A stretch of DNA of 64,000 nucleotides, taken from contig JAGPDF010000016.1 of assembly GCA_018057705.1 (NCBI GenBank), positions 5,016 through 69,015 on the forward strand. Direction: 5' to 3'. Made by a program: the position numbers and the translations under genes. Source of the stretch: Thermoanaerobaculia bacterium (lineage in GTDB: Bacteria; Acidobacteriota; Thermoanaerobaculia; Multivoradales; JAGPDF01). Below the pieces are notes generated by a model. It worked only from the letters and a program-made list of their open reading frames with translations. It was not told the origin of the DNA and ran no database searches. Shown here piece by piece: positions 2,083 to 34,618 of the stretch; position 1 is the first letter of the stretch, and each line of letters begins with the position of its first letter.

Positions 2083-2781
2083 TCATCGCGGGGCGGAGGC
2101 GACCGGCGGGGCTGCCGGAGATGCGGGGGGCGTCGCCGCGCGGGTTCCGGTGCCGCGATCGCTCGCCATCGGCGTCTCGCCGACCCTTACGCGATCGCCC
2201 TTCTTGACCAGGATCTCGTAGGAAGCCGGGACGTAGAGGTCGACCCGCGAGCCGAACTTGATGACGCCCATGAGCTCGCCGCGCTGCACGCGATCGCCCT
2301 TGTCGAGGTAGGAGACCACCCGCCGCGCGATCAGGCCGGCGAGCTGGCGCACGCCGACGCGATCGCCGTTGGGGCGCTCGAAGACGTTGGTGTAGCGCTC
2401 GTTCTTGTCGCCGACGTCGGCGCGGAAGGCGGCGAGCTTCTGGCCTCTGAGCAGGCCGGAAAAGACGACCTCGCCCGCCACCGGGCTGCGCTGCACGTGC
2501 ACGTCGAAGACCGAGAGAAAGGTGACGACACGGCGGTAGGGACCTGGACCGATCTCCGGATCGACGACCTCGTCCACCGCGGTGATGAGTCCGTCTGCTG
2601 GCGCGAGAACGAGACTCTCCGGGCCGTCGAACCGGCGGGTGGGATCGCGGAAGAACAGCAGCACGAGGAGGCTCACGAGCGCCACTGCGATCGCGGCCGT
2701 GCGGCGCTCGAAGTAGAGCAGCGCACCGGCGATCGCGACCAGCGGCAGGACGAATGCCCAGGCCTCCTTGGCGAAACTCAC
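2083..2781 (-). CDS. psd: phosphatidylserine decarboxylase proenzyme (short archaeal/bacterial type)
   Basis: The 232 aa product has an N-terminal TM segment and a C-terminal KFGSRVD self-cleavage (GS) motif, and the gene forms an operon with pssA. Confidence 0.8.
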   Translation of the reverse strand: MSFAKEAWAFVLPLVAIAGALLYFERRTAAIAVALVSLLVLLFFRDPTRRFDGPESLVLAPADGLITAVDEVVDPEIGPGPYRRVVTFLSVFDVHVQRSPVAGEVVFSGLLRGQKLAAFRADVGDKNERYTNVFERPNGDRVGVRQLAGLIARRVVSYLDKGDRVQRGELMGVIKFGSRVDLYVPASYEILVKKGDRVRVGETPMASDRGTGTRAATPPASPAAPPVASAPR

Positions 2782-2824
2782 GCGCGGCCCGCCGGCGGGC
2801 GCAGCGTGGATGGCGATCGCAGGT

Positions 2825-3058
2825 TCAGACCCGGACCTGATTTTCCTGGTGTTCGCGCAGCATGGCCTCCATGCGGTCCTTGAGCGCGAGCTTGTGGATC
2901 TTGAGACGCTTCTCCTCGGCCTCGTCCTCCTGCGACGGAAGGGTCCGCTGGGCGATCTGAACCAGGCGCTCCTCGCACTCGTGATGCTCGGCGTGGAGGA
3001 GCCGGAAGGCCTCGCTGGTGCGCAGGAACTCTTGTCTGAGGGCGTCGGCGTTCGGCAT
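2825..3058 (-). CDS. DUF465 (YdcH-like) small conserved protein
   Basis: The 77 aa product starting MPNADALRQEFLRTSEAFRLLHAEHHECEERLVQIA...LKDRMEAML fits the DUF465 pattern. The start was chosen at the internal ATG, which is preceded by GGAG; the longer ORF 2825..3109 adds 17 residues. Confidence 0.5.
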   Translation of the reverse strand: MPNADALRQEFLRTSEAFRLLHAEHHECEERLVQIAQRTLPSQEDEAEEKRLKIHKLALKDRMEAMLREHQENQVRV

Positions 3059-3123
3059 CGAGACGTACTCCTTTCTCCCGTTGGGAGCGGTCGAGTTCGA
3101 GGATAGCACCCGGCTTTTGCGCC

Positions 3124-3645
3124 CTACAACCGCCGCTCACCGCCGAGGCTGCCGGGCTCGCGGGCGAGGAGCCAGGCGTCGCAGTCGTCGCGGTAGTAGC
3201 GCCTGCGAAGGCCAGCGAGGGCGAAACCGAACCCCTGGTAGAGGGCCTGTGCGGCCAGGTTGTCCGCCCGTACCTCGAGGTGGCAGCGGACGCCGGACCG
3301 GTCCAGCCCGGCCAGGGCGGCGGCCAGGAGGCTCCTGCCGACCTGCCGGCGCCGCCACGCCGGAGCGGTTGCGACCCGCAGGAGCTCGGCCTCGCCTGCG
3401 ACCTCCCGGAAGAGGGCGAAACCGACCGCGTCGCCGGCCGTCGACTCGGCGAGCCAGCCGAGCGCCCCCGGGGCCTCCCAGAAGCGCGCGATCTGGTCGG
3501 GCGTCCAGGGTTCGGCGAAGGCGCCGGCCTCCAGGGCCGCCAGGGTGTCGAGGTCGCGGATCGAAGCGCCACGGATCCGGAGAGGGACCGGTGCCTGCGC
3601 CGCGCGCCCGCCGCGCGGGGCGGCCGATCCGCTCCGGTCGTTCAT
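3124..3645 (-). CDS. rimI: ribosomal-protein-alanine N-acetyltransferase (GNAT)
   Basis: The 173 aa product has a GNAT fold with the RRRQVGRSLL acetyl-CoA motif. It overlaps tsaB by 4 nt in the usual tsaB-rimI arrangement. The 5' part of the 670 aa ORF in the track is antisense to mutS and is an artifact. Confidence 0.75.
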   Translation of the reverse strand: MNDRSGSAAPRGGRAAQAPVPLRIRGASIRDLDTLAALEAGAFAEPWTPDQIARFWEAPGALGWLAESTAGDAVGFALFREVAGEAELLRVATAPAWRRRQVGRSLLAAALAGLDRSGVRCHLEVRADNLAAQALYQGFGFALAGLRRRYYRDDCDAWLLAREPGSLGGERRL

Positions 3646-4322
3646 CGACCCGGATTGCGGGGCGTGAACCCTCGCAGGTAGAGCGGCCGGAGCTCGGCGG
3701 ACACGAGGTCGTCGATCGTGCCGGCGGAAGCGGCCACTGCCACCGCGGCGCAGAGCGCGCTGGCACGGTGGAAGCGGTGGACAGGGGGCTCTGCGAATCG
3801 GGCTGGCAGCGGCTGGGTCGCGTGAGCGGCGAGCAGGGCCCCCGCAGGGGGAGCGATCTGCGCGACAGCCTGCCGCGCGGGTTCTGCGATCGTCACGAGG
3901 CCGCCTTCGCGGCGCTCGAACTCCTGCACGAACCACTCGTCGCGCAGCGCGTCGACGAGCGCCACGACACGCTCGCCGGGCGCCGAGGCGGTCTCTGCCG
4001 CGGAGCTCCCCGCAGCGGCGTCGATGGCCAGGGCGGCGAGATTCGACAGCGCGACGACCGGCACGGCGAGCCCGGCGCGGAATCCGAGCGCGGTAGCGAG
4101 GGCTACGCGGATCCCGGTGAAGCTCCCCGGTCCGCTGAGGACGACGATGCCGTCGAGGTCCGCCGTCGCGATGGCGGCGCGCCGGAGACTGGCGTCGATC
4201 TGGTGCAGGAGCGACGGGCCGGAGCGGCTCTCGCCGGAGCTCTCGGCGAGCCGGGCGCCGTCGCGGGCGACCGCCGCGCTGGTGACCGGAGAGCCGGCGT
4301 CGAAGGCGAGCCAAAGGGACAT
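3642..4322 (-). CDS. tsaB: tRNA threonylcarbamoyladenosine biosynthesis protein TsaB (YeaZ)
   Basis: The 226 aa product begins MSLWLAFDAGSPVTSAAVARDG with the N-terminal actin-like fold motif of TsaB, contains LSGPGSFTGIRV, and lies upstream of rimI. Confidence 0.8.
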   Translation of the reverse strand: MSLWLAFDAGSPVTSAAVARDGARLAESSGESRSGPSLLHQIDASLRRAAIATADLDGIVVLSGPGSFTGIRVALATALGFRAGLAVPVVALSNLAALAIDAAAGSSAAETASAPGERVVALVDALRDEWFVQEFERREGGLVTIAEPARQAVAQIAPPAGALLAAHATQPLPARFAEPPVHRFHRASALCAAVAVAASAGTIDDLVSAELRPLYLRGFTPRNPGR

Positions 4323-16077: not shown

Positions 16078-16152
16078 TGGGGCGTCGCCAAGCGGTAAGG
16101 CACGAGACTTTGGATCTCGCATTCGGAGGTTCGAATCCTCCCGCCCCAACCA
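16078..16152 (+). tRNA. tRNA-Gln (anticodon UUG)
   Basis: The sequence is TGGGGCGTCGCCAAGCGGTAAGGCACGAGACTTTGGATCTCGCATTCGGAGGTTCGAATCCTCCCGCCCCAACCA. It has a 7 bp acceptor stem, a GGTTCGAATCC T-arm, the anticodon loop CTTTGGA and an encoded CCA, and is near-identical in layout to E. coli tRNA-Gln. Confidence 0.85.
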
Positions 16153-26219: not shown

Positions 26220-28100
26220 ATGCACGACGATCTTCGCCGGCAGATCGAGGCGCTTCCGGACACCCCCGGTATCTACGTCTTCCGCAACCTCGCCGGCGAG
26301 GCGCTCTACGTCGGCAAGGCGAAGTCTCTGCGCAAGCGGGTGCCCGCCTACCTCGGGCGGGATCTCGAGCCCCGGCTGGCGGCGATGATCGAGCTCGCGG
26401 TTTCGGTCGAGTGCGTGGCAACGGCGACCGAGGCCGCCGCGCTGATGCTCGAGAACAACTGGATCAAGCGCCACCGGCCGCGCTACAACGTCCTCCTCCG
26501 GGACGACAAGACCTACCCCTACCTCAAGCTGACCCGGGAACCCTGGCCCCGGCTGGTCTTCACCCGCCGGATCCGCCAGGACGGCGCCGAGTACTTCGGT
26601 CCCTACCTGCCCGGCGGCCTGGCCCGACGGGCCCTGAAGCTGGTTCAGAAACTCTTCGGCGTGCGCGTCTGCTCGATCGAGATCGACGGCGGCCTGCCGC
26701 GCCCGTGTCTCTATCACGACATGAAGCGCTGCCTGGGCCCCTGTGTCGCCGGCCTGACCTCGAGCGCCGAGTACGCCGAGGCCGTCGAGGGCGCGCGGCT
26801 CTTTCTCGGCGGCAAGACGGCGCCGCTCTGCAAGAGCCTGCGGACGCAGATGGAAGCCGCCGCCGAGAACCTCGAGTTCGAGCGTGCCGCGCGGCTGCGC
26901 GACCTCCTGGCGGAGATCGAGCGCCAGTCGAGCCGTTCGCCGCTCTCGTCGGTGCACGAGGAGGACATCGACCTGTTCGGCGTCGCGGTACACGGCAACC
27001 AGGCGGCGGTTTCGATCCTCGTCATGCGCTCCGGACAGGTGCTCGACCGGCGGGAGGTCTTCTGGGAGGGCGAGAGCGCCGCCAGCCCGCCGCAGTTGCT
27101 GTCGGAGCTCCTGCCCCAGATCTACGACCTCACGACCTTTCTGCCCAAGGAGCTCCATCTGCCTTTCGAAGTGGACGGCGAAGAGGCGCTCGCCGACTGG
27201 ATGTCGGAGCGCAAGGGCGAGCGCGTCTACCTGCGCCATCCCGAGCGCGGCCCGAAGGCGGAACGGCTGCGGATCGCGGCCAAGGACGCCGAGTTCGCCT
27301 TCCGCCGGCGCTATCGCCTCGATCCGTCGCGCGACGCCGCGCCGCGCGCTCTGGCCCGGCACCTCGGCCTCGCCAAGCCGCCTCGGTGGATCGAAGGCTT
27401 CGACATCTCGAACCTCCAGGGCACGGCCGTGATCGCCTCGATGGTGGTCTGGCGGGACGGCCGCATCCGCAAGGGGGAGTACCGCAGCTTCAACATCCGC
27501 AGCTTCGTCGGCCAGGACGACTTCCGCTCGATCGGCGAGGCGGTCGAGCGCCGCTACCGCCGGCTGCGCGAGGAGTCCGGCGTCTTTCCCGACCTGGTGC
27601 TGATCGACGGCGGCCGCGGACAGCTCGGGGCCGCCGCCGCCGCGCTCGCCGGCCTCCAGCTCGAGGACCTGCCGCTGGTCTCGATCGCCAAACGCGAGGA
27701 GGAGCTCTACCTGCCCGGGGCGCCGGAACCGCTCCGGTTGCCTCGCCGCGACGAAGGCCTGCGTCTGCTGCAGATGCTGCGCGACGAGGCTCACCGTTTC
27801 GCCATCTCGAAGCACCGGCGCCAACGCACGACCGGCTCCCTGCGCAGCCGCCTGGAGGAGATTCCTGGCGTCGGTCCGGTGCGACGAAGGCTCCTCGCGC
27901 ATCGCTATGGCACCTGGGAGAGACTGAGCGCGGCGCCTCTCCCGGAGCTCGAGGCGGTGCTCGGCCGCGCTCTCGGCGGTGCCGTCCACCGGCACCTGAC
28001 CGAGGTCGCCGCGCTCGCAGCCGGCGCCCCCGCCGCAGCTCCGGCGCTGCCAGCCGCCGACGCGGCCGATGCCGATGCCGACTCGCGCAGGATCGACTAG
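26220..28100 (+). CDS. uvrC: excinuclease ABC subunit C
   Basis: The N-terminus carries the GIY-YIG motif (PGIYVFRN...LYVGKA), followed by a UvrC homology region and a C-terminal HhH domain. Confidence 0.9.
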   Translation: MHDDLRRQIEALPDTPGIYVFRNLAGEALYVGKAKSLRKRVPAYLGRDLEPRLAAMIELAVSVECVATATEAAALMLENNWIKRHRPRYNVLLRDDKTYPYLKLTREPWPRLVFTRRIRQDGAEYFGPYLPGGLARRALKLVQKLFGVRVCSIEIDGGLPRPCLYHDMKRCLGPCVAGLTSSAEYAEAVEGARLFLGGKTAPLCKSLRTQMEAAAENLEFERAARLRDLLAEIERQSSRSPLSSVHEEDIDLFGVAVHGNQAAVSILVMRSGQVLDRREVFWEGESAASPPQLLSELLPQIYDLTTFLPKELHLPFEVDGEEALADWMSERKGERVYLRHPERGPKAERLRIAAKDAEFAFRRRYRLDPSRDAAPRALARHLGLAKPPRWIEGFDISNLQGTAVIASMVVWRDGRIRKGEYRSFNIRSFVGQDDFRSIGEAVERRYRRLREESGVFPDLVLIDGGRGQLGAAAAALAGLQLEDLPLVSIAKREEELYLPGAPEPLRLPRRDEGLRLLQMLRDEAHRFAISKHRRQRTTGSLRSRLEEIPGVGPVRRRLLAHRYGTWERLSAAPLPELEAVLGRALGGAVHRHLTEVAALAAGAPAAAPALPAADAADADADSRRID

Positions 28101-28111
28101 ACTCTCCAGCC

Positions 28112-29614
28112 ATGCAAGGGCCGACGGGCGGAAGGATGGGGGATCTGAAGGACAAGCCGATCCTCGATGTGCTCCGGGAGTTCCACTTCCGCCACGCCAC
28201 CGGCATTCTCGAGGTCGACGGCGGCGAGCACAAGCGCCGGCTCTTCCTGCGTGACGGCAGCCTCTATCTCGCCGGCACGCATCCTCTCGCACGGCGGTTG
28301 GGCGAGCTGGTGAGCGCGCTCTCCGACCCGACCCAGGCCGCCGCAGCCGCCGAGTCCAGGCGGCGATTCCTGGAGTTGGTCGAGCGCATGGCGCGGGTGA
28401 TAGGCGAATGGCGCACCGGCCACTATCGCTTCGTCGACGACCCTGGACTGCTCACGGTGGAGCTGGTCGGGCCGCTGCCGACCCGCCGGCTGCTGATGGT
28501 CGGCTCGACGATCGGGGCGACGCCGGCGCAGCTGCTTTCGATGCTGGGTGGAGATCGCGCGGCGTTGGCCGCCGTTTCCGAGCGCGATCTGCCTCCCGAG
28601 CCGAAGGATCAGCTCGGTCTCGGCCCCGAAGAGCAGTTCCTGCTCGAGCGCCTGCGTCAGCCGATGACCCTGGGCGAGATCGTCGGGGAGAGTCCCCTCG
28701 ACCGCGAGGGCACGCATCGCCTCCTGGCCCAGCTGCTCGCGGTCCGCAAGATCCGTGTCCTCGGGCGAGCCGATCCCGCCAGCGCGGCTCCGGTGCAGGA
28801 CGCGGCGCTGCTGCAGAGCTTCTCGACCCGGTTCGAGCGCAACCTCAGGGAGGAGCCGCTCCAGCTCACCCAGGTGGAGTTCCGGACGCGCGTGGCGGAG
28901 CTCTTCGCGCGCATCGGCGCGATGAACTTCTACGAGCTGCTGGAAGTCGATCCGGCAGCCTCGGCCGATCAGGTACAGACGCGCTACGAAGCGCTGGCTC
29001 GTCTGGTTCACCCGTCCAACGAGGCGGCGTTCGGCCTGACCGGCTTGAAGCCGATGCTCGCGATGCTCTTCGACCGCGCCACGCAGGCCTACCTCGCGCT
29101 CTCCGATCCCGAGCGCCGCCGGCTCTACAACCAGAGTCAGGCGATCGATCTGTCGACGGCGCGGGTCACCGGCGCCGAGCGCGAGGTCGAGTCGAAGGAT
29201 CTGGCCCGCAACTACTTCGAGCAGGCGCAGGCCCAGGTGGCGCGCGGCGATTTCCACTACGCCGTCGAGCTCCTGCAGCTCGCGGTCTCGCTCGACCGGC
29301 GGCCCGACTACCTTCTCGCGCTGGCGCGGGTGGAGCTGCGGAACCCGAAGTGGCTGCAGCGCGCCGCCGACTCCTGCCGGGCGGCGCTGGAGATCGAGCC
29401 GCAGAACGCCGAGGTGCGCTTCGTGTTGGGCGAGGTCTACGAGCTGCTGGGCGACACGGAGCGGGCGCGCGGGCAGTTCACGGCCGCGACGCGATCGAAC
29501 CCGGGGCACGTCATGGCGCAGGCCAAGCTCAGGAACCTGAGCCAACCCAAACCCGCGCCGTCGGACGCGGAAGGCGGCCTCTTCAGCCGCATCTTCCGTC
29601 GTCGCGACGAGTAG
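28112..29614 (+). CDS. DUF4388 (PATAN-like) domain / J-domain / TPR protein
   Basis: The N-terminus contains LDVLREFHFRHATGILEVDGGEHKRRLFLRDGSLYLA, which is DUF4388-like. The central J-domain (MNFYELLEVDPAASADQVQTRYEALARLVHPS) has the HPD motif replaced by HPS, and the C-terminus has TPR-like helices. The product is the real 3' third of track ORF 26411..29614. Confidence 0.6.
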   Translation: MQGPTGGRMGDLKDKPILDVLREFHFRHATGILEVDGGEHKRRLFLRDGSLYLAGTHPLARRLGELVSALSDPTQAAAAAESRRRFLELVERMARVIGEWRTGHYRFVDDPGLLTVELVGPLPTRRLLMVGSTIGATPAQLLSMLGGDRAALAAVSERDLPPEPKDQLGLGPEEQFLLERLRQPMTLGEIVGESPLDREGTHRLLAQLLAVRKIRVLGRADPASAAPVQDAALLQSFSTRFERNLREEPLQLTQVEFRTRVAELFARIGAMNFYELLEVDPAASADQVQTRYEALARLVHPSNEAAFGLTGLKPMLAMLFDRATQAYLALSDPERRRLYNQSQAIDLSTARVTGAEREVESKDLARNYFEQAQAQVARGDFHYAVELLQLAVSLDRRPDYLLALARVELRNPKWLQRAADSCRAALEIEPQNAEVRFVLGEVYELLGDTERARGQFTAATRSNPGHVMAQAKLRNLSQPKPAPSDAEGGLFSRIFRRRDE

Positions 29615-29659
29615 CGCCGTCGCTGGCAGAGGAGCGAGTCCGGGTGGTATCTTGAATCC

Positions 29660-30054
29660 GGTCGAAGAGCCCGGCGCGGTCGCTCCACGTTCGCGTGGAG
29701 AGGAAAGTCCGGACTCCAACGGGTGGCATGCTCGCCAACGGCGAGGCGCAGTGATGCGACGGAAAGTGCAACAGAAAACAGACCGCCCCGCCTTCGGGCG
29801 AGGTAAGGGTGAAACGGCGCGGTAAGAGCGCACCGCCCGGCCGGCGACGGTCCGGGGCAAGGCAAACCCCATGCGGAGCAAGACCAAATAGGGGGATGGC
29901 AGTGCGGGCCGCCCGTCCCGCCCGTTCCGGTTCGCCGGGACGACTTCCCCGGGTAGGTTGCTCGAGGCCGGCGGCAACGCCGGTCCCAGAGGAATGACCG
30001 TGACCGGCATCGCGAGATGACGGCACAGAACTCGGCTTATCGGGCTCTTCGACC
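29660..30054 (+). ncRNA. rnpB: RNase P RNA, bacterial type A
   Basis: P1 is formed by GGTCGAAGAGCCCG at 29660..29673 pairing with CGGGCTCTTCGACC at 30041..30054. The universal elements present are GGAAAGTCCGGACTCC, GGTAAGGGTGAAACGGCGCGGTAAGAGCGCACC and ACAGAACTCGGCTTATCGG, and the gene is about 395 nt. Confidence 0.8.
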
Positions 30055-30085
30055 CCTTTTCCGCCCACTCCCGCCCATCTCCGCC

Positions 30086-30982
30086 ATGGCCCCGGTTCTC
30101 CCCCCAGCCGTCCGTCCCGGCGATCGCGTCGGCATCGCGGCGCTCTCCGGTCCGGTCGACCCCGTCCGGCTGACGAACGGCATCGCCGAGCTCGCGCGGC
30201 TCGGTTTCGAGCCGGTGCCGGCGCGCAACCTCGACCGCCGTGCGGGACTCTTCGCCGGCGACGACGCCCTGCGCGCTGCGGCGTTCCACGAGCTCGCCGA
30301 CGATCCCTCGCTCTCCGCGATTTTCTTCGCCCGCGGCGGCCACGGCCTGATGCGCGTCCTGCCGCTCCTCGACTGGGATCGGCTCGCGGCGACGCCGCGC
30401 GCCTACGTCGGCTACTCGGATCTGACGCCCTTCCTGCTGAACGTCGTCGAGCGTCTCGGCTGGGTCGCCTTCCACGGCCCGATGGTTGCGGCGGAGATGG
30501 CCCGCGGCCTCGCCGACGAAGAGAGCGCCAGCCTGCTGACGGCGCTCGCCGGCGATCCCCGGCAGGAGCTCGCGCTCGGACGGGTGATCGCCGGGTCGGA
30601 TCCGGCCGAGGGTCCTCTCCTCGGCGGTTGCCTCAGCCTTCTCGCCGGTGTCGCCGGCACCCCGTTCGCCACGCCCTTTGGCGACGCCGTGCTGTTCGTC
30701 GAGGACGTCGGCGAACCGCTCTACCGGGTCGATCGGATGTTGACCCAGTTGGACCTGTCCGGTAGTCTGGCCGCGGTTCGCGCCATGGTTTTCGGAACCT
30801 CCACTTTTTCCCCTCTCGACGAGGCCACGGCCGACCTGATCCGCGATCGCGCGGGCGATCGGACGGTCGCTTTCGGCCTGTCCGCCGGGCATACCGCACC
30901 AAACTTCACGCTGCCGCTCGGGTGCTCCGCCCGGATCGACGCGGACAGCTCGCTGCTCGTCATCGACCACCCTCAGGGCTAG
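30086..30982 (+). CDS. ldcA: LD-carboxypeptidase (peptidase S66, muramoyltetrapeptide carboxypeptidase-like)
   Basis: Contains the S66 core motifs GYSDLTPF and GHGLMR. The start was set at ATG 30086 because the upstream part of the track ORF overlaps rnpB. Confidence 0.7.
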   Translation: MAPVLPPAVRPGDRVGIAALSGPVDPVRLTNGIAELARLGFEPVPARNLDRRAGLFAGDDALRAAAFHELADDPSLSAIFFARGGHGLMRVLPLLDWDRLAATPRAYVGYSDLTPFLLNVVERLGWVAFHGPMVAAEMARGLADEESASLLTALAGDPRQELALGRVIAGSDPAEGPLLGGCLSLLAGVAGTPFATPFGDAVLFVEDVGEPLYRVDRMLTQLDLSGSLAAVRAMVFGTSTFSPLDEATADLIRDRAGDRTVAFGLSAGHTAPNFTLPLGCSARIDADSSLLVIDHPQG

Positions 30983-30997
30983 AGAGCGAGATCCGCC

Positions 30998-31813
30998 ATG
31001 GCGACCAGCAAGCCGGTCTTCAAGACCACGAGCAAGAAGCCGAACCTGCCGAACTACACCGTGGAGTTCGAGGCCGCCGAGTTCATCTTCAGCGAAGGCG
31101 ATCTCGGGATGGAGATGTACATCATTCACGAGGGCAAGATCGAGATCCTGAAGAGCATCCAGGGCGAGCAGCGCCAGCTCGCGGTGCTCGAGAAGGGCGA
31201 CTTCTTCGGCGAGATGGCGATTCTCGAAGATCTCCCGCGGACCGCTGCGGCGCGGGCCCTCACCGCCGTGAAGCTGCTGCTCATCAACGGCGCCACGTTC
31301 GACCAGATGCTGCGCACGAATCCGGAGATCGCGGTGCGGATGATGCGCAAGCTGTCGCGCCGCCTGCGCGACACCGACCATCTGCTGCGCGACTCGCCGG
31401 CGGCCGTCGCCGCGCTGGAACAGCCGACGCCGACCGTGGGCTCGGGCGCATTGCGCCTTCCGGGCAGCACCGAAACCGCGCCCGGCGTCGGTCCGCAGCG
31501 CCTCGTGCACGACAAGTCGGGGATGGAGTTCGCGCTCGCCAAGGGGGCCGAGACGATGATCGGCCGCCGCGACCCGGTGACCGGCATCGACCCCGACATC
31601 GACCTCACCCCCGCCGACACCCAGCGCTCGATCAGCCGCCGCCACGCCAAGATCTACCGCCGCGAAGGCAAGTTCTTCATCGCCGAAGAGATCGGCACCA
31701 TGAACGGCACCTTCGTCAACGGCACCCGCCTCGAAACCGGCGTCCCCACCGAAATCAAATTCGACGACGAAGTCCGCTGCGGCCTCGTCAACCTCAAGTT
31801 CAAAGCCGAGTAG
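30998..31813 (+). CDS. cyclic-nucleotide-binding domain + FHA domain protein
   Basis: The N-terminal cNMP-binding domain has FGEMAIL and a PRTAAARA phosphate-binding cassette. The C-terminal FHA domain contains GRRDPVTGIDPDIDLTP...SRRHAKIYRREGKFFIAEEIGTMNGTFVNGTRL. Confidence 0.7.
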   Translation: MATSKPVFKTTSKKPNLPNYTVEFEAAEFIFSEGDLGMEMYIIHEGKIEILKSIQGEQRQLAVLEKGDFFGEMAILEDLPRTAAARALTAVKLLLINGATFDQMLRTNPEIAVRMMRKLSRRLRDTDHLLRDSPAAVAALEQPTPTVGSGALRLPGSTETAPGVGPQRLVHDKSGMEFALAKGAETMIGRRDPVTGIDPDIDLTPADTQRSISRRHAKIYRREGKFFIAEEIGTMNGTFVNGTRLETGVPTEIKFDDEVRCGLVNLKFKAE

Positions 31814-31825
31814 CACAGCACCCCG

Positions 31826-32049
31826 CAGCTGGGGACATGTAGCTGCCTCAAGCGAAGGCTGCCCCGACCTGCGATCGCTACAGGGCGGATGCGTGTCCCC
31901 GGCGTACCTCTTCCGCCAGCTGGGGACATGTAGCTGCTCCAGCGAAGGTGCTCCCCGCAGCTGGGGACATGTAGCTGCCCCAAGCGAAGGCTGTCCCGAC
32001 CTGCGATCGCCGCAGGGCGGATACGTGTCCCCGGCGTACCTCTTCCGCC
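31826..32049. repeat. tandem direct repeat, 92 bp unit, about 2.4 copies
   Basis: Copy 1 spans 31826..31917, and copy 3 spans 31958..32049 with about 5 mismatches. A 40 bp partial copy lies between them at 31918..31957. Each unit starts CAGCTGGGGACATGTAGCTGC and ends GGCGTACCTCTTCCGCC. Confidence 0.75.
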
Positions 32050-32069
32050 TCGCCCGTGGTCGCGCTGCT

Positions 32070-32278
32070 CCGGCACTCGGGATCCAAGGCGGGCTCCTAT
32101 TTGAAGCGTGGTCGCCCACCTTGGATCCCGAGCGCCCTCGCGTCGCGGTGAGACGGGGTAGATGGGGACAATCCTCTTTTGTCCTTGCTGCTGTTCCGCC
32201 TGGGGCGCTCTGGCGCTCGGGATCTAGAGTGGGCGACCACGCCTCAAATAGGAGCCCGCTCTAGATCCCGAGTGCCGG
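32070..32278. repeat. long imperfect inverted repeat (two ~50 bp arms) flanking a ~110 bp core with a nested inner inverted repeat; MITE-like or structured-RNA element
   Basis: The left arm CCGGCACTCGGGATCCAAGGCGGGCTCCTATTTGAAGCGTGGTCGCCCAC (32070..32119) is the reverse complement of the right arm 32229..32278, with about 4 mismatches. The inner pair is TGGATCCCGAGCGCC (32121..) against GGCGCTCGGGATCTA (32211..). The motif TCGGGATC/GATCCCGA occurs four times. Confidence 0.65.
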
Positions 32279-32368
32279 AGTGCCCTACCACCGAAGCAAA
32301 ACTTGAGTCGCAGTGAGACGGACCGGACAGGACCCCGAGCGCACCGGAAGAAGAGAGCACGCAGAGGA

Positions 32369-34618
32369 ATGAAGCGCGATCGCGTTAAGCTCGCGTGCAG
32401 CGTGACGGCCGAAAACTCAACCCCGCGAGCCTCCGCTTCCGCTGTACCCATCCGCCTGGACACGCCGCTGCGGTTTCTCAAGGGGGTGGGGCCGGGGCGG
32501 GCGGAGAAGCTGGCGGGGGCGGGGCTCTCGACGGTGGAGGATCTGCTGCTGACGGTGCCGTTGCGGTATGAGGACCGGCGGCGGGTGGCGCGGGTGAAGG
32601 AGATCCAGGGGCCGGGGGCTTGGACGGTGGCGGGTCGGCTCGAGGATCTGCGGGCGATCCGGACGCGGCGGCGGGGGATGGTCATCGTGCGCGGGCGGCT
32701 GGTGGACGACTCGGGGGCGATTCCGGTCTCGTGGTTCAACCAGCCGTACCTTCTCACGCGCCTCCAGCAAGTTCCCGGCGCCACGTGGCTCCTCCACGGG
32801 GCGGTGAAGGGGGCCGACTGGGGGCTCTGGGAGATGACCAACCCGACCTGCGAGGCGGTCGATCCGGAGCAGACCGATCGTGCCGGGCGGATCGTCCCGA
32901 TCTACTCGAAGGTCGCGGGTCTCCCTTCCGGGCTCTTCGCGCGTCTTCTCGCGCAGGCGCTGCCGGCGCTCGACGCCGTCGTGGTCGCTTCCAAGCCCGA
33001 CGCCGCCCACGCTTCAAACAATGCCGGCGCCGCGGCCGGCGCTTCCCATGTCGCCGCCGCCCACCCTGCCAGCGCCGCGCTCGATCTGCTGCCGCCGGAA
33101 CTGCTGAAGCGCTACGCGCTGCCTTCGCTGCCGGTGGCGCTGCGGCAGTTGCATCGGCCGCCGGCGAACACCGATGTCGAGGCGCTGAACCGCGGAGAGA
33201 GTGGGGCGCACTCGCGGCTCGCTTATGGCGAGCTGCTCGAGTTTCAGCTCCAGCTGGCGCGGCGGCGGGCGGGCGAGGCCGCGATCGAGAAGCGGCATCG
33301 CTACCGCGTCGACGACGCGGTACGCGGCGCGGCGCGGGCCATGCTGCCGTTCGCGCTCACCGGGGCGCAGAAGCGGGTGGTGAAGGAGATCGTCGACGAT
33401 CTCAAGCGTCCGCAGGCGATGCTGCGGCTGTTGCAGGGCGACGTCGGCAGCGGGAAGACCATCGTCGCGGCGATCTGCCTGCTGCTCGCCTCCGAGAGCG
33501 GTCTGCAGGCGGCCTTCATGGCGCCGACCGAGCTCCTCGCCGAGCAGCATTTCGGCAACCTGCGGCGTTTGCTGGGCGGGCGCTGCCGAATCGAGCTGGT
33601 GAGCGCCTCCGGTTCGACGGCGGCGGTGAAGCGCGCCCTCGCCGATGGCTCGGTCCAGATCGCCGTCGGCACCCACGCGCTCATCCAGCGCGGTATCTCT
33701 TTTCACCGTCTCGGCCTCGCGATCATCGACGAGCAGCATCGCTTCGGCGTCGAGCAGCGGAAGGTCCTGCAGTCGAAGGGCGACCAGCCCGACATTCTCG
33801 TGATGACGGCGACGCCCATTCCGCGCACCCTCACGCTGACCCTGTACGGCGACCTCGACGTCTCGCAGATCGACGAGATGCCGCCCGGCCGCGGAACGCT
33901 CCTCACCGAGGTCCTTCCCGGTGGCGAGCGCAAGGAGGTCTACCGCCGCCTGCGCGCCGAGCTCGCCGCGGGGGCTCAAGGGTACGTCGTCTTCCCGCTG
34001 ATCGAAGAGAGTGAGGAGATCCCTGCGGCCTCTCTCGCGGCGCTCGGCGCGAAGGTGAGGGAGTACCTGGCCGACTTTCCGAGCGCCGTCCTGCATGGAA
34101 AGATCCCGGCGGTGGAGCGCGAGAGGATCATGCAGGAGTTCGCCGCCGGGAAGATCAAGGTGCTGGTCGCGACGACCGTCATCGAGGTCGGCGTCGACGT
34201 GCCCAACGCCACCTGGATGATCGTCGAGAGCGCCGAGCGCTTCGGCCTCGCCCAGCTCCACCAGCTGCGCGGCCGGGTCGGGCGGGGGAGCGGGGCGTCG
34301 CATTGCCTGGCGCTCCACGGCCGGCTCTCCGAAGAGGGGACGAAGCGGCTCGACGTCTTCGCCTCGACCCGTGACGGCTTCGCCATCGCCGAGGCCGACC
34401 TCCAGATCCGCGGCCCCGGCGACCTCCTCGGGACGCGCCAGGCCGGGCTGCCGCGCTTCCGCGTCGCCGACCTCGCGACCCACCTCGCCTGGATCGAGCG
34501 CGCCCGCCAGGACGCCCGCGAAATCGTGGCGCGCTTCGATGCCCCCGAGTATGGGCGACTGCGCGCCCGGGTGGAGGCGCGCGCGGCCCGGCTGGGCGAC
34601 CAGCTGGCGGGAGGCTGA
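32369..34618 (+). CDS. recG: ATP-dependent DNA helicase RecG
   Basis: The N-terminal wedge domain contains LRFLKGVGPGRAEKL, and the helicase core has the DEQHRFGV and MTATPIPRT motifs followed by the C-terminal TRG motif. The start was chosen at an internal ATG, 749 aa from the end. Confidence 0.9.
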   Translation: MKRDRVKLACSVTAENSTPRASASAVPIRLDTPLRFLKGVGPGRAEKLAGAGLSTVEDLLLTVPLRYEDRRRVARVKEIQGPGAWTVAGRLEDLRAIRTRRRGMVIVRGRLVDDSGAIPVSWFNQPYLLTRLQQVPGATWLLHGAVKGADWGLWEMTNPTCEAVDPEQTDRAGRIVPIYSKVAGLPSGLFARLLAQALPALDAVVVASKPDAAHASNNAGAAAGASHVAAAHPASAALDLLPPELLKRYALPSLPVALRQLHRPPANTDVEALNRGESGAHSRLAYGELLEFQLQLARRRAGEAAIEKRHRYRVDDAVRGAARAMLPFALTGAQKRVVKEIVDDLKRPQAMLRLLQGDVGSGKTIVAAICLLLASESGLQAAFMAPTELLAEQHFGNLRRLLGGRCRIELVSASGSTAAVKRALADGSVQIAVGTHALIQRGISFHRLGLAIIDEQHRFGVEQRKVLQSKGDQPDILVMTATPIPRTLTLTLYGDLDVSQIDEMPPGRGTLLTEVLPGGERKEVYRRLRAELAAGAQGYVVFPLIEESEEIPAASLAALGAKVREYLADFPSAVLHGKIPAVERERIMQEFAAGKIKVLVATTVIEVGVDVPNATWMIVESAERFGLAQLHQLRGRVGRGSGASHCLALHGRLSEEGTKRLDVFASTRDGFAIAEADLQIRGPGDLLGTRQAGLPRFRVADLATHLAWIERARQDAREIVARFDAPEYGRLRARVEARAARLGDQLAGG

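Follow-up and report, generated by a model that had tools for sequence, protein, structure and literature searches.

A conserved acidobacterial protein with a CRP-type cyclic-nucleotide-binding domain and an FHA domain, encoded between ldcA and recG

Bacterial cyclic nucleotide monophosphate (cNMP) signaling and Hanks-type Ser/Thr-kinase signaling are usually studied as separate networks. The described systems closest to the protein considered here come from both sides, namely the CRP-type sensors, such as CRP and GlxR, and the FHA proteins GarA and OdhI. FHA domains are specific for phosphothreonine (pThr). In GarA, an unstructured N-terminal extension carries an ETTS phospho-acceptor motif that, once phosphorylated, is bound by the protein's own FHA domain, which switches GarA off (PMC5448819). 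Here, we describe a gene from a 64,000-nucleotide stretch of Thermoanaerobaculia DNA (assembly GCA_018057705.1, contig JAGPDF010000016.1; referred to as the window), located between ldcA and recG, and we compare its product with these systems. The open reading frame (ORF) is a genuine gene, and its product is a small cytoplasmic protein in which a CRP-type cyclic-nucleotide-binding (CNB) domain is fused to an FHA domain (CNB-FHA protein). The residues expected for cNMP phosphate and ribose binding (E72 and R81) and for pThr binding (R190, S213, H216, and N236) are all conserved, and judging from its sequence, the protein probably links cAMP/cGMP signaling to Ser/Thr-kinase signaling.

Domain architecture and conservation of the CNB-FHA protein

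The ORF begins at ATG 30998, the earliest possible start after the upstream in-frame stop, and its third-position GC of 0.92 is like that of the other genes in this 70% GC window. An identical protein is present on several public Acidobacteriota metagenome-assembled genome (MAG) contigs, e.g., GCA_020054605.1. Pfam assigns aa 22 to 108 to cNMP_binding (PF00027; 80.6 bits against a cutoff of 27.5, E = 8.6e-23), with the profile covered end to end, and aa 187 to 261 to FHA (PF00498; 47 bits against a cutoff of 20.7, E = 3.5e-12). Neither a helix-turn-helix (HTH) family nor any further domain was found by Pfam at E ≤ 0.01, and no DNA-binding domain was found by Pfam or NCBIfam. A preliminary description of this DNA had read the ORF, at exactly these coordinates, as a cNMP-binding domain fused to a C-terminal FHA domain without a DNA-binding HTH, and had proposed a domain search as a check; the Pfam result agrees on each point, and the motifs that it had quoted are all present (FGEMA at residues 70 to 74, PRTA at 80 to 83, GR at 189 to 190, SRRHA at 213 to 217, and NGTFVNG at 236 to 242). 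A transcription factor with a hidden HTH was considered and rejected, given that no DNA-binding domain was detected and that the C-terminal 108 aa form an FHA β-sandwich. All NCBIfam matches fall below cutoff and occur at the domain level only; among the CRP/FNR-type models (CRP, FNR, NtcA, FixK, and others), that of CRP scored best, with 47.7 bits against a cutoff of 266, and the matches are confined to aa 8 to 133.

We modeled the protein with AlphaFold2 from 118 relatives with 63 to 93% identity to the window protein, which also serve as our close set for conservation. The model has a mean predicted local distance difference test score (pLDDT) of 79 and a predicted template modeling score (pTM) of 0.51. 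It places a disordered tail at aa 1 to 19, a barrel at aa 21 to 96, helices at aa 98 to 107 and 109 to 131, a disordered linker, and an FHA sandwich at aa 164 to 270, the last with a pLDDT of ~90 or higher. No solved chain with both a CNB and an FHA domain was found in a Foldseek search against the PDB.

In the same search, the barrel was closest to cAMP-bound GlxR, Mycobacterium tuberculosis (Mtb) CRP, Thermus CAP, and Escherichia coli CRP, at 27 to 34% identity. The phosphate-binding cassette consists of F70-G71-E72-M73-A74 and P80-R81-T82-A83, and in it G67, D68, F69, F70, G71, E72, M73, L76, E77, P80, R81, and A83 are invariant in the close set. The segment that follows the barrel and forms helices αB and αC, PEIAVRMMRKLSRRLRDTD, is near-invariant among relatives, with E110, R114, R117, L119, S120, R122, T126, D127, and L130 fully invariant in the close set. 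BLASTP against E. coli CRP aligns aa 23 to 127 and lays R121-R122-L123-R124-D125-T126-D127 over R-R-L-Q-V-T-S of CRP, which we take to be R122-R123-L124-Q125-V126-T127-S128 in mature numbering, T127-S128 presumably being the C-helix residues in contact with the adenine N6 of cAMP. This T127/S128 pair is also named in the title of a PDB entry among the Foldseek matches ("CAP/CRP variant T127L/S128A").

The FHA domain carries its motifs at G189-R190 (β3-β4), S213-R214-R215-H216-A217 (β4-β5), and N236-G237-T238-F-V-N-G, aa 236 to 242 (β6-β7). Its core residues G189, R190, S213, R214, H216, N236, and T238 are invariant in the close set. So are D192, P193, V194, T195, I197, P199, D202, L203, D207, R210, and S211 in an extended, family-specific loop region spanning β3-β4/β4-β5, RDPVTGIDPDIDLTPADTQRS. 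The hallmark of the family is an insertion after the FHA Gly-Arg, GRxDxxTGxxP[DE][VI]DL. By structure, this domain is closest to GarA (6i2p_E, TM score of 0.78 normalized to GarA), and by sequence, the nearest solved FHA domains are GarA and OdhI (E ~1e-5).

Conservation extends to distant relatives. In a wider set of 33 sequences, reaching down to 33% identity, G189, R190, P199, D202, L203, R214, H216, N236, and G237 are invariant, and at least 90% of the sequences retain E72, R81, and S213. The invariance of these residues, G189 and R190 among them, down to 33% identity identifies G189-R190 as the canonical FHA Gly-Arg. The preliminary description had made its reading depend on the cassette Arg and on the FHA Arg, Ser, His, and Asn aligning with those of relatives; R81 is invariant in the close set and kept in at least 90% of the wider one, and R190, H216, and N236 align without exception, with S213 in at least 90%.

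The family comprises thousands of 90%-identity clusters. A word-indexed protein search returned 3,367 matches, the best 120 of which all have both Pfam domains and are 259 to 296 aa long, and a second search, started from a 64%-identical protein, returned 3,738 matches at E ≤ 1e-20. An exhaustive search of 50%-identity representatives yielded 293 clusters at E ≤ 1e-30, and of the 150 top-ranking ones, the majority are two-domain proteins of 240 to 300 aa that match end to end. The same search also returned giant proteins of 2,600 to 3,800 aa (P0121, P0124, and P0126) with 12 to 14 tandem CNB-like stretches, which score like true orthologues and have an unrelated architecture. Among the matches listed in the protein searches, the genome scan, and the cluster look-up, all sources are MAGs or metagenomes. 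Most relatives come from Thermoanaerobaculia, Holophagales, or Acidobacteriota, and the more distant ones come from Vicinamibacteria, Aminicenantes, and a few bins of other phyla. Their names are all generic ("cyclic nucleotide-binding domain-containing protein," "CRP-like cAMP-binding protein," and "Cyclic nucleotide-binding domain/FHA domain"). No description of a CNB-FHA fusion was found in the full-text literature, where candidate papers treat the two domains separately, and the architecture appears to be undescribed and uncharacterized in the accessible literature. The fusion is no surprise in kind, given that signaling domains shuffle freely and that automated pipelines already annotate both domains.

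Across 34 species-level genomes, the median identity to the window proteins was 56% for the CNB-FHA protein, 56% for UvrC, 53% for LdcA, 47% for RecG, and 38% for the DnaJ-TPR protein encoded nearby. The equality with UvrC points to constraint at the level of a housekeeping protein, and the family is under strong purifying selection at a fixed gene position. In one MAG, DASVLC01 (SMAG_U3063), a syntenic orthologue (L034, 49% identity) occurs together with a second CNB-FHA paralogue in a different context (L043, 46%), indicating that the architecture has been duplicated within genomes. Our analysis thus goes beyond the preliminary description in four respects: the very large, conserved family, the ldcA-X-recG gene order (where X is the CNB-FHA gene), the predicted CRP-like C-helix with a Thr at the cAMP-contact position of CRP, and the clade-specific N-terminal tail.

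Favored mechanism and the role of the N-terminal tail

Given two intact domains, a coupling of cNMP to Ser/Thr-kinase signaling would be the simplest inference. On balance, and with moderate confidence, we favor a CRP-like, probably dimeric cNMP receptor that has FHA-mediated protein binding as its output and serves as a signal-integrating adaptor. In this mechanism, the CRP-type sensor half, with its intact phosphate-binding cassette and long C-helix, would belong to a soluble, cytoplasmic protein in which an FHA domain on a flexible linker takes the place of the DNA-binding HTH of CRP. The ligand would be a 3',5'-cNMP and most likely cAMP, given that T126-D127 occupy the positions of the adenine-contact pair T127-S128 of CRP. 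Dimerization could proceed through the C-helix in the fashion of CRP, and ligand binding could alter what the FHA domain is able to reach; the linker, together with the lack of a confident interdomain interface, points to tethering or occlusion more than to a rigid hinge. Partner binding would then need both the second messenger and a phosphorylation mark from a Hanks-type kinase, either on the partner or on the protein's own K-P-V-F-K-T-T-S tail, and the FHA partner itself could be phosphorylated or unphosphorylated. Such an adaptor would be neither an enzyme nor a transcription factor.

Several observations weigh against this mechanism or parts of it. The linker of ~30 aa is disordered and variable in length, which argues against rigid hinge coupling in the style of CRP, and the pTM of 0.51 means that no interdomain contact was predicted with confidence. 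The N-terminal αA helix that is usual for CNB domains is missing from the AlphaFold2 model. The top PDB sequence matches of the barrel are apicomplexan PKG CNB domains with an R-T-A cassette (Plasmodium PKG CNB-D, E = 5e-26), and given that these domains are cGMP specific, cGMP is also possible as the ligand. GarA shows that an FHA domain may also bind targets that lack phosphorylation (PMC5448819). Pfam and public gene calls for the ~45 ORFs of the window revealed no Ser/Thr kinase, no PP2C phosphatase, and no class III cyclase. Beside distant relatives, Pkinase, PP2C, and Guanylate_cyc are absent from the list of the 25 most frequent Pfam families, all of which occur in two or more of 78 neighbors.

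If the favored mechanism holds, the two networks would meet at a defined node, a conserved single-copy protein with both a competent cNMP sensor and a competent reader of pThr. The protein is conserved at the level of UvrC, and its gene has a fixed place in a housekeeping operon throughout a major lineage of uncultured Acidobacteriota. Being small and soluble, it is experimentally tractable.

The N-terminal tail suggests another way in which the FHA domain could be used. F8 and K9 are invariant in the close set, 90% or more of which also retain K5, P6, V7, and T11, and the consensus in the clade is [KN]-[PA]-V-F-K-[TS]-[TG]. The motif occurs in 34 of 34 loci of the syntenic clade and in none of 23 other relatives. 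We considered an intramolecular phospho-switch of the GarA/OdhI type with a cNMP input, in which a Hanks-type kinase phosphorylates T10/T11 of the KPVFKTTS tail and the resulting pThr is bound, in cis or across a dimer, by the FHA domain of the protein itself. This would release targets that the FHA surface otherwise binds unphosphorylated, and the cNMP-bound CNB domain would bias the equilibrium between open and closed states. The close match of the FHA domain to GarA and OdhI, the capture of the ETTS pThr by the GarA FHA domain (PMC5448819), and the regular presence of a disordered tail with F-K followed by T/S-T in the syntenic clade all speak for such a switch. However, several clade members lack the tail Thr and read F-K-S-G or V-K-S-G (L024, L025, L026, L029, L031, and L032). 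The residues at pT+3 would be Lys or Pro, which are not typical of FHA preference. Outside the clade, relatives have retained the same FHA domain and lack the tail, suggesting that the tail is not its primary ligand, and the NCBIfam OdhI model (NF041660) gives only 30.9 bits against a cutoff of 200. In relatives labeled Vicinamibacteria or Acidobacteriota that have other gene contexts (L045 and L047 to L054), a different, likewise conserved N terminus, M..K(N/E/D)(P/S)FA(K/R/Q)FL, stands in place of KPVFKTTS. The NPFA(K/R)FL of Vicinamibacteria-type relatives looks like a CNB αA at the same place, so the tail may instead be a derived αA element. Taken together, we regard the phospho-switch as unlikely. 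The tail also resembles what we take to be the N-motif recognized by ClpX, Met-basic-hydrophobic(3), and by this analogy, it may have a degron-like role.

Gene neighborhood and the remaining alternatives

The CNB-FHA gene sits in a shared array that reads PBP1a (minus strand), a small ORF, uvrB, uvrC, PatA_N-DnaJ-TPR, RNase P RNA, ldcA, CNB-FHA, recG, GT4, a small ORF, trpS, scpA, scpB, rluB, and cmk. By public gene calls, this array surrounds the identical protein as well as 64 to 69% identical orthologues in two assemblies (5.2 Mb and 3.9 Mb); its RNase P RNA was located in the window only. In agreement with the preliminary description, which had put the gene between ldcA and a repeat-rich region upstream of recG, a Peptidase_S66 gene lies upstream and a repeat-filled spacer followed by recG lies downstream (Table 1). 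Among species-level genomes with a CNB-FHA protein of at least 47% identity, ldcA is directly upstream in 34 of 36 loci and recG is downstream in 30 of 36. This conserved order is found in Thermoanaerobaculia and in MAGs labeled Holophagales, and it persists even where LdcA identity is as low as 31%. Typical spacers measure 6 to 60 nt between ldcA and the CNB-FHA gene and -27 to ~100 nt between the latter and recG, and gene calls on the 5.2-Mb and 3.9-Mb contigs (L005 and L007) show a 4-nt overlap of the ldcA and CNB-FHA genes; such short spacers and overlaps imply cotranscription. The PatA_N-DnaJ-TPR protein, which may be a signaling or chaperone adaptor, holds the same position in distant relatives at 26 to 46% identity. 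Below ~46% identity of the CNB-FHA protein, the gene context of relatives is unrelated and heterogeneous; the 78 neighboring proteins of 20 nonsyntenic loci belong to mixed families (GAF, STAS, FHA, GGDEF, and TPR). In one Thermoanaerobaculia MAG (L016, positions 2738 to 3950), the CNB-FHA gene is followed immediately by a GT4 gene, and no recG match lies between them, indicating that the ldcA-X-recG triad can be broken.

Table 1. Features of the CNB-FHA gene and its surroundings in the window
Feature	Position	Strand	Basis or remark
CNB-FHA protein gene, 271 aa	30998..31813 (stop codon included)	+	ORF, Pfam, identical protein in public MAG contigs
N-terminal tail, aa 1-19, predicted disordered	30998..31054	+	AlphaFold2 pLDDT ~45-53
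Tail motif K5-P-V-F-K-T-T-S12	31010-31033	+	Conservation
CNB eight-stranded β-barrel, aa 21-96	31058..31285	+	Pfam PF00027, AlphaFold2 strands, Foldseek
Phosphate-binding cassette F69-FGEMAILEDLPRTA-A84, with E72 and R81	31202..31249	+	Invariance in 118 sequences; aligned to PKG, PKA, and CRP cassettes
Helices αB and αC, aa 98-131 (PEIAVRMMRKLSRRLRDTD), including T126-D127 (nt 31373-31378)	31289..31390	+	AlphaFold2, conservation, BLASTP
Linker, variable, Pro/Ala-rich, aa 132-163	31391..31486	+	pLDDT <50 at aa 141-160; length and sequence differ among relatives
FHA domain, aa 164-270, with G189-R190, S213-R-R-H216, N236-G-T238	31487..31807	+	Pfam PF00498, AlphaFold2, Foldseek, invariance
Species-specific repeat insert widening the CNB-FHA/recG spacer	31818..32285	.	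Two direct repeats and two hairpin elements
ldcA-type LD-carboxypeptidase (Peptidase_S66), 298 aa, upstream partner	30086..30982	+	Pfam, public gene calls; stop 15 nt before CNB-FHA start
recG, downstream partner	32369..34618	+	Start per public assemblies; mechanical ORF start 32303
RNase P RNA, bacterial class A, between DnaJ-TPR gene and ldcA	29663-30055	+	275.8 bits
PatA_N(DUF4388)-DnaJ-TPR protein, 492 aa, between uvrC and RNase P RNA	28136-29614	+	
tRNA-Gln(TTG), between spoVG and prs	16078-16152	+	Sole tRNA of the window

These neighbors raise the possibility of an operon-specific regulator, in which the FHA domain binds the product of an adjacent gene (LdcA, RecG, the GT4 glycosyltransferase, or the PatA_N-DnaJ-TPR protein) and thereby makes peptidoglycan recycling, envelope glycosylation, or DNA-branch processing dependent on cNMP. 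The conserved order, its persistence at low LdcA identity, and the tight spacing, often of only -27 to ~50 nt, which would fit cotranscription or translational coupling, argue for it, and FHA proteins are involved in the regulation of cell-wall synthesis in Actinobacteria (FhaA and FipA). However, the block lies within a long housekeeping array, from uvrB to cmk, that lacks functional coherence, so the gene order may reflect inheritance rather than partnership. Moreover, relatives from other classes have unrelated gene neighborhoods, and the window, L013, L024, and L033 carry insertions of 0.5 to 2.5 kb between the CNB-FHA gene and recG. We consider a regulator of this kind somewhat less likely still than the phospho-switch. 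About as doubtful is a combination of these ideas, namely, a two-input AND/OR gate unique to this uncultured acidobacterial lineage, with a kinase-phosphorylated FK-T-T tail, capture by the FHA domain in cis, closure set by cAMP, and a housekeeping target from the same operon (LdcA in peptidoglycan recycling or RecG in DNA-branch processing). Were such a gate real, no direct convergence of cAMP and Ser/Thr-kinase signaling on one bacterial reader protein would have been described before it.

The insert in the window is made up of two 100-nt direct-repeat copies (31818 to 31917 and 31950 to 32049) that are 94% identical and 132 nt apart from start to start, a third, partial copy of 32 nt at 31910, and two hairpin elements (32061 to 32147 and 32203 to 32285) that have arms of 32 to 34 nt and are mutually inverted. 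These repeats are limited to the window species, apart from a single copy in an 83%-identical relative (L009), and they occur nowhere else in the window. The CNB-FHA/recG junction is a recurrent insertion site, with gaps of 0.36 to 2.5 kb in L013 (3840 to 6354), L033 (3058 to 4288), L024 (6789 to 7585), and L036 (6765 to 7121); elsewhere, the genes abut or overlap. A scan of 29500 to 32500 found no promoter-like site and one weak terminator-like site (32164 to 32176) that was not above shuffle expectation. The mechanical ORF start of ldcA at 30017 overlaps the RNase P RNA, so the real start is taken to be 30086, as in public gene calls. An antisense ORF of 1340 aa (28097 to 32119) spans the RNase P RNA/ldcA region and is spurious. 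The window otherwise contains only housekeeping genes, e.g., mutS, ssb, prs, rplY, rplI, rpsA, hup, lpxB, coaBC, pepA, and efflux genes.

Compared with the cNMP-sensing adaptor that we favor, a further alternative concerns the ligand. The CNB domain might not sense cNMP at all and might instead bind another small molecule or serve only as a dimerization scaffold, in which case the protein would be a bivalent FHA adaptor. CRP/FNR-type barrels are known to bind other ligands, such as heme, 2-oxoglutarate, and Fe-S clusters, and no cyclase lies near the gene. In the wider alignment, the distant two-domain relatives P0262 and P0176 have lost the cassette Glu and/or Arg and kept the FHA core; by their sequences, they are probably ligand-blind derivatives. 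However, the cassette GDFFGEM..LE..PR.A is invariant in the close set and matches those of proven cNMP binders, and T126 aligns with T127 of CRP, making this alternative improbable. A role as receptor or effector of a cyclic-nucleotide antiphage system, Pycsar- or CBASS-like, is highly improbable and was rejected, given that the PADLOC matches (PycTIR and Pycsar models, aa 22 to 133, E = 1e-11 to 1e-8) span the shared CNB domain only, that neither a cyclase nor a toxic effector domain is present, and that a fixed housekeeping position across class-level divergence with slow, UvrC-like evolution is the opposite of what defense islands show.

Comparison with known systems

By its domains, the CNB-FHA protein is a true member of both the CNB-domain and the FHA-domain superfamilies, and it would work like a CRP sensor half attached to a GarA-type reader. 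Several described families share one domain with it. Beyond the GarA/OdhI model, the TagH model of type VI secretion (TIGR03354) gave 38.5 bits against a cutoff of 120.25 and the type III model Yop-YscD_cpl gave 29.1 bits against 33.2; no secretion-system genes were found in the window by Pfam or public gene calls. The Pycsar models match the CNB region alone, with no TIR or transmembrane domain detected by Pfam and no adjacent cyclase. Given that the models score below cutoff and that the defining contexts are absent, the protein is, on its sequence, not a member of the GarA/OdhI, TagH, or Pycsar family.

The sensor half is most like CRP, GlxR, and Mtb CRP, with which it shares the eight-stranded barrel, the G-E...R-[ST]-A cassette, and a predicted long C-helix in which R-R-L..T lies over R122-R123-L124..T127 of CRP. 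GlxR and Mtb CRP, the top Foldseek matches, are ~30 to 34% identical to the barrel. Unlike in the CRP family, the C-terminal winged HTH is replaced by the FHA domain, the short hinge by a disordered linker of ~30 aa, and αA is not predicted. Without an HTH, the CNB-FHA protein is not a CRP/FNR transcription factor.

GarA and OdhI have the closest solved FHA domains and are likewise soluble and of small size, with a disordered N-terminal tail that includes a conserved T-T-S (ETTS in GarA and FKTTS in the CNB-FHA protein) (PMC5448819). In contrast to these, the CNB-FHA protein has a whole CNB domain between tail and FHA domain and an extended loop after the G-R. The tail Thr is not universal in its clade, and GarA and OdhI are actinobacterial regulators of the TCA cycle and belong to another phylum.

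The CNB domains of PKA regulatory subunits and PKG, the best sequence matches of the barrel and cassette (R-T-A), also tie a cNMP sensor to Ser/Thr phosphorylation. Their CNB domains regulate a kinase domain directly, whereas the CNB-FHA protein has no kinase domain, and its link to phosphorylation would be the reading of pThr rather than its writing. Bd1971, the cNMP-EAL protein of Bdellovibrio, and other bacterial CNB-output fusions resemble our protein in joining a CRP-like CNB domain (~34% identity) to an output that does not bind DNA. Unlike Bd1971, the output of the CNB-FHA protein is a protein-interaction domain without enzymatic activity, so that DNA binding and enzymes, as outputs of CRP-type sensors, are joined by a module devoted to protein interaction alone.

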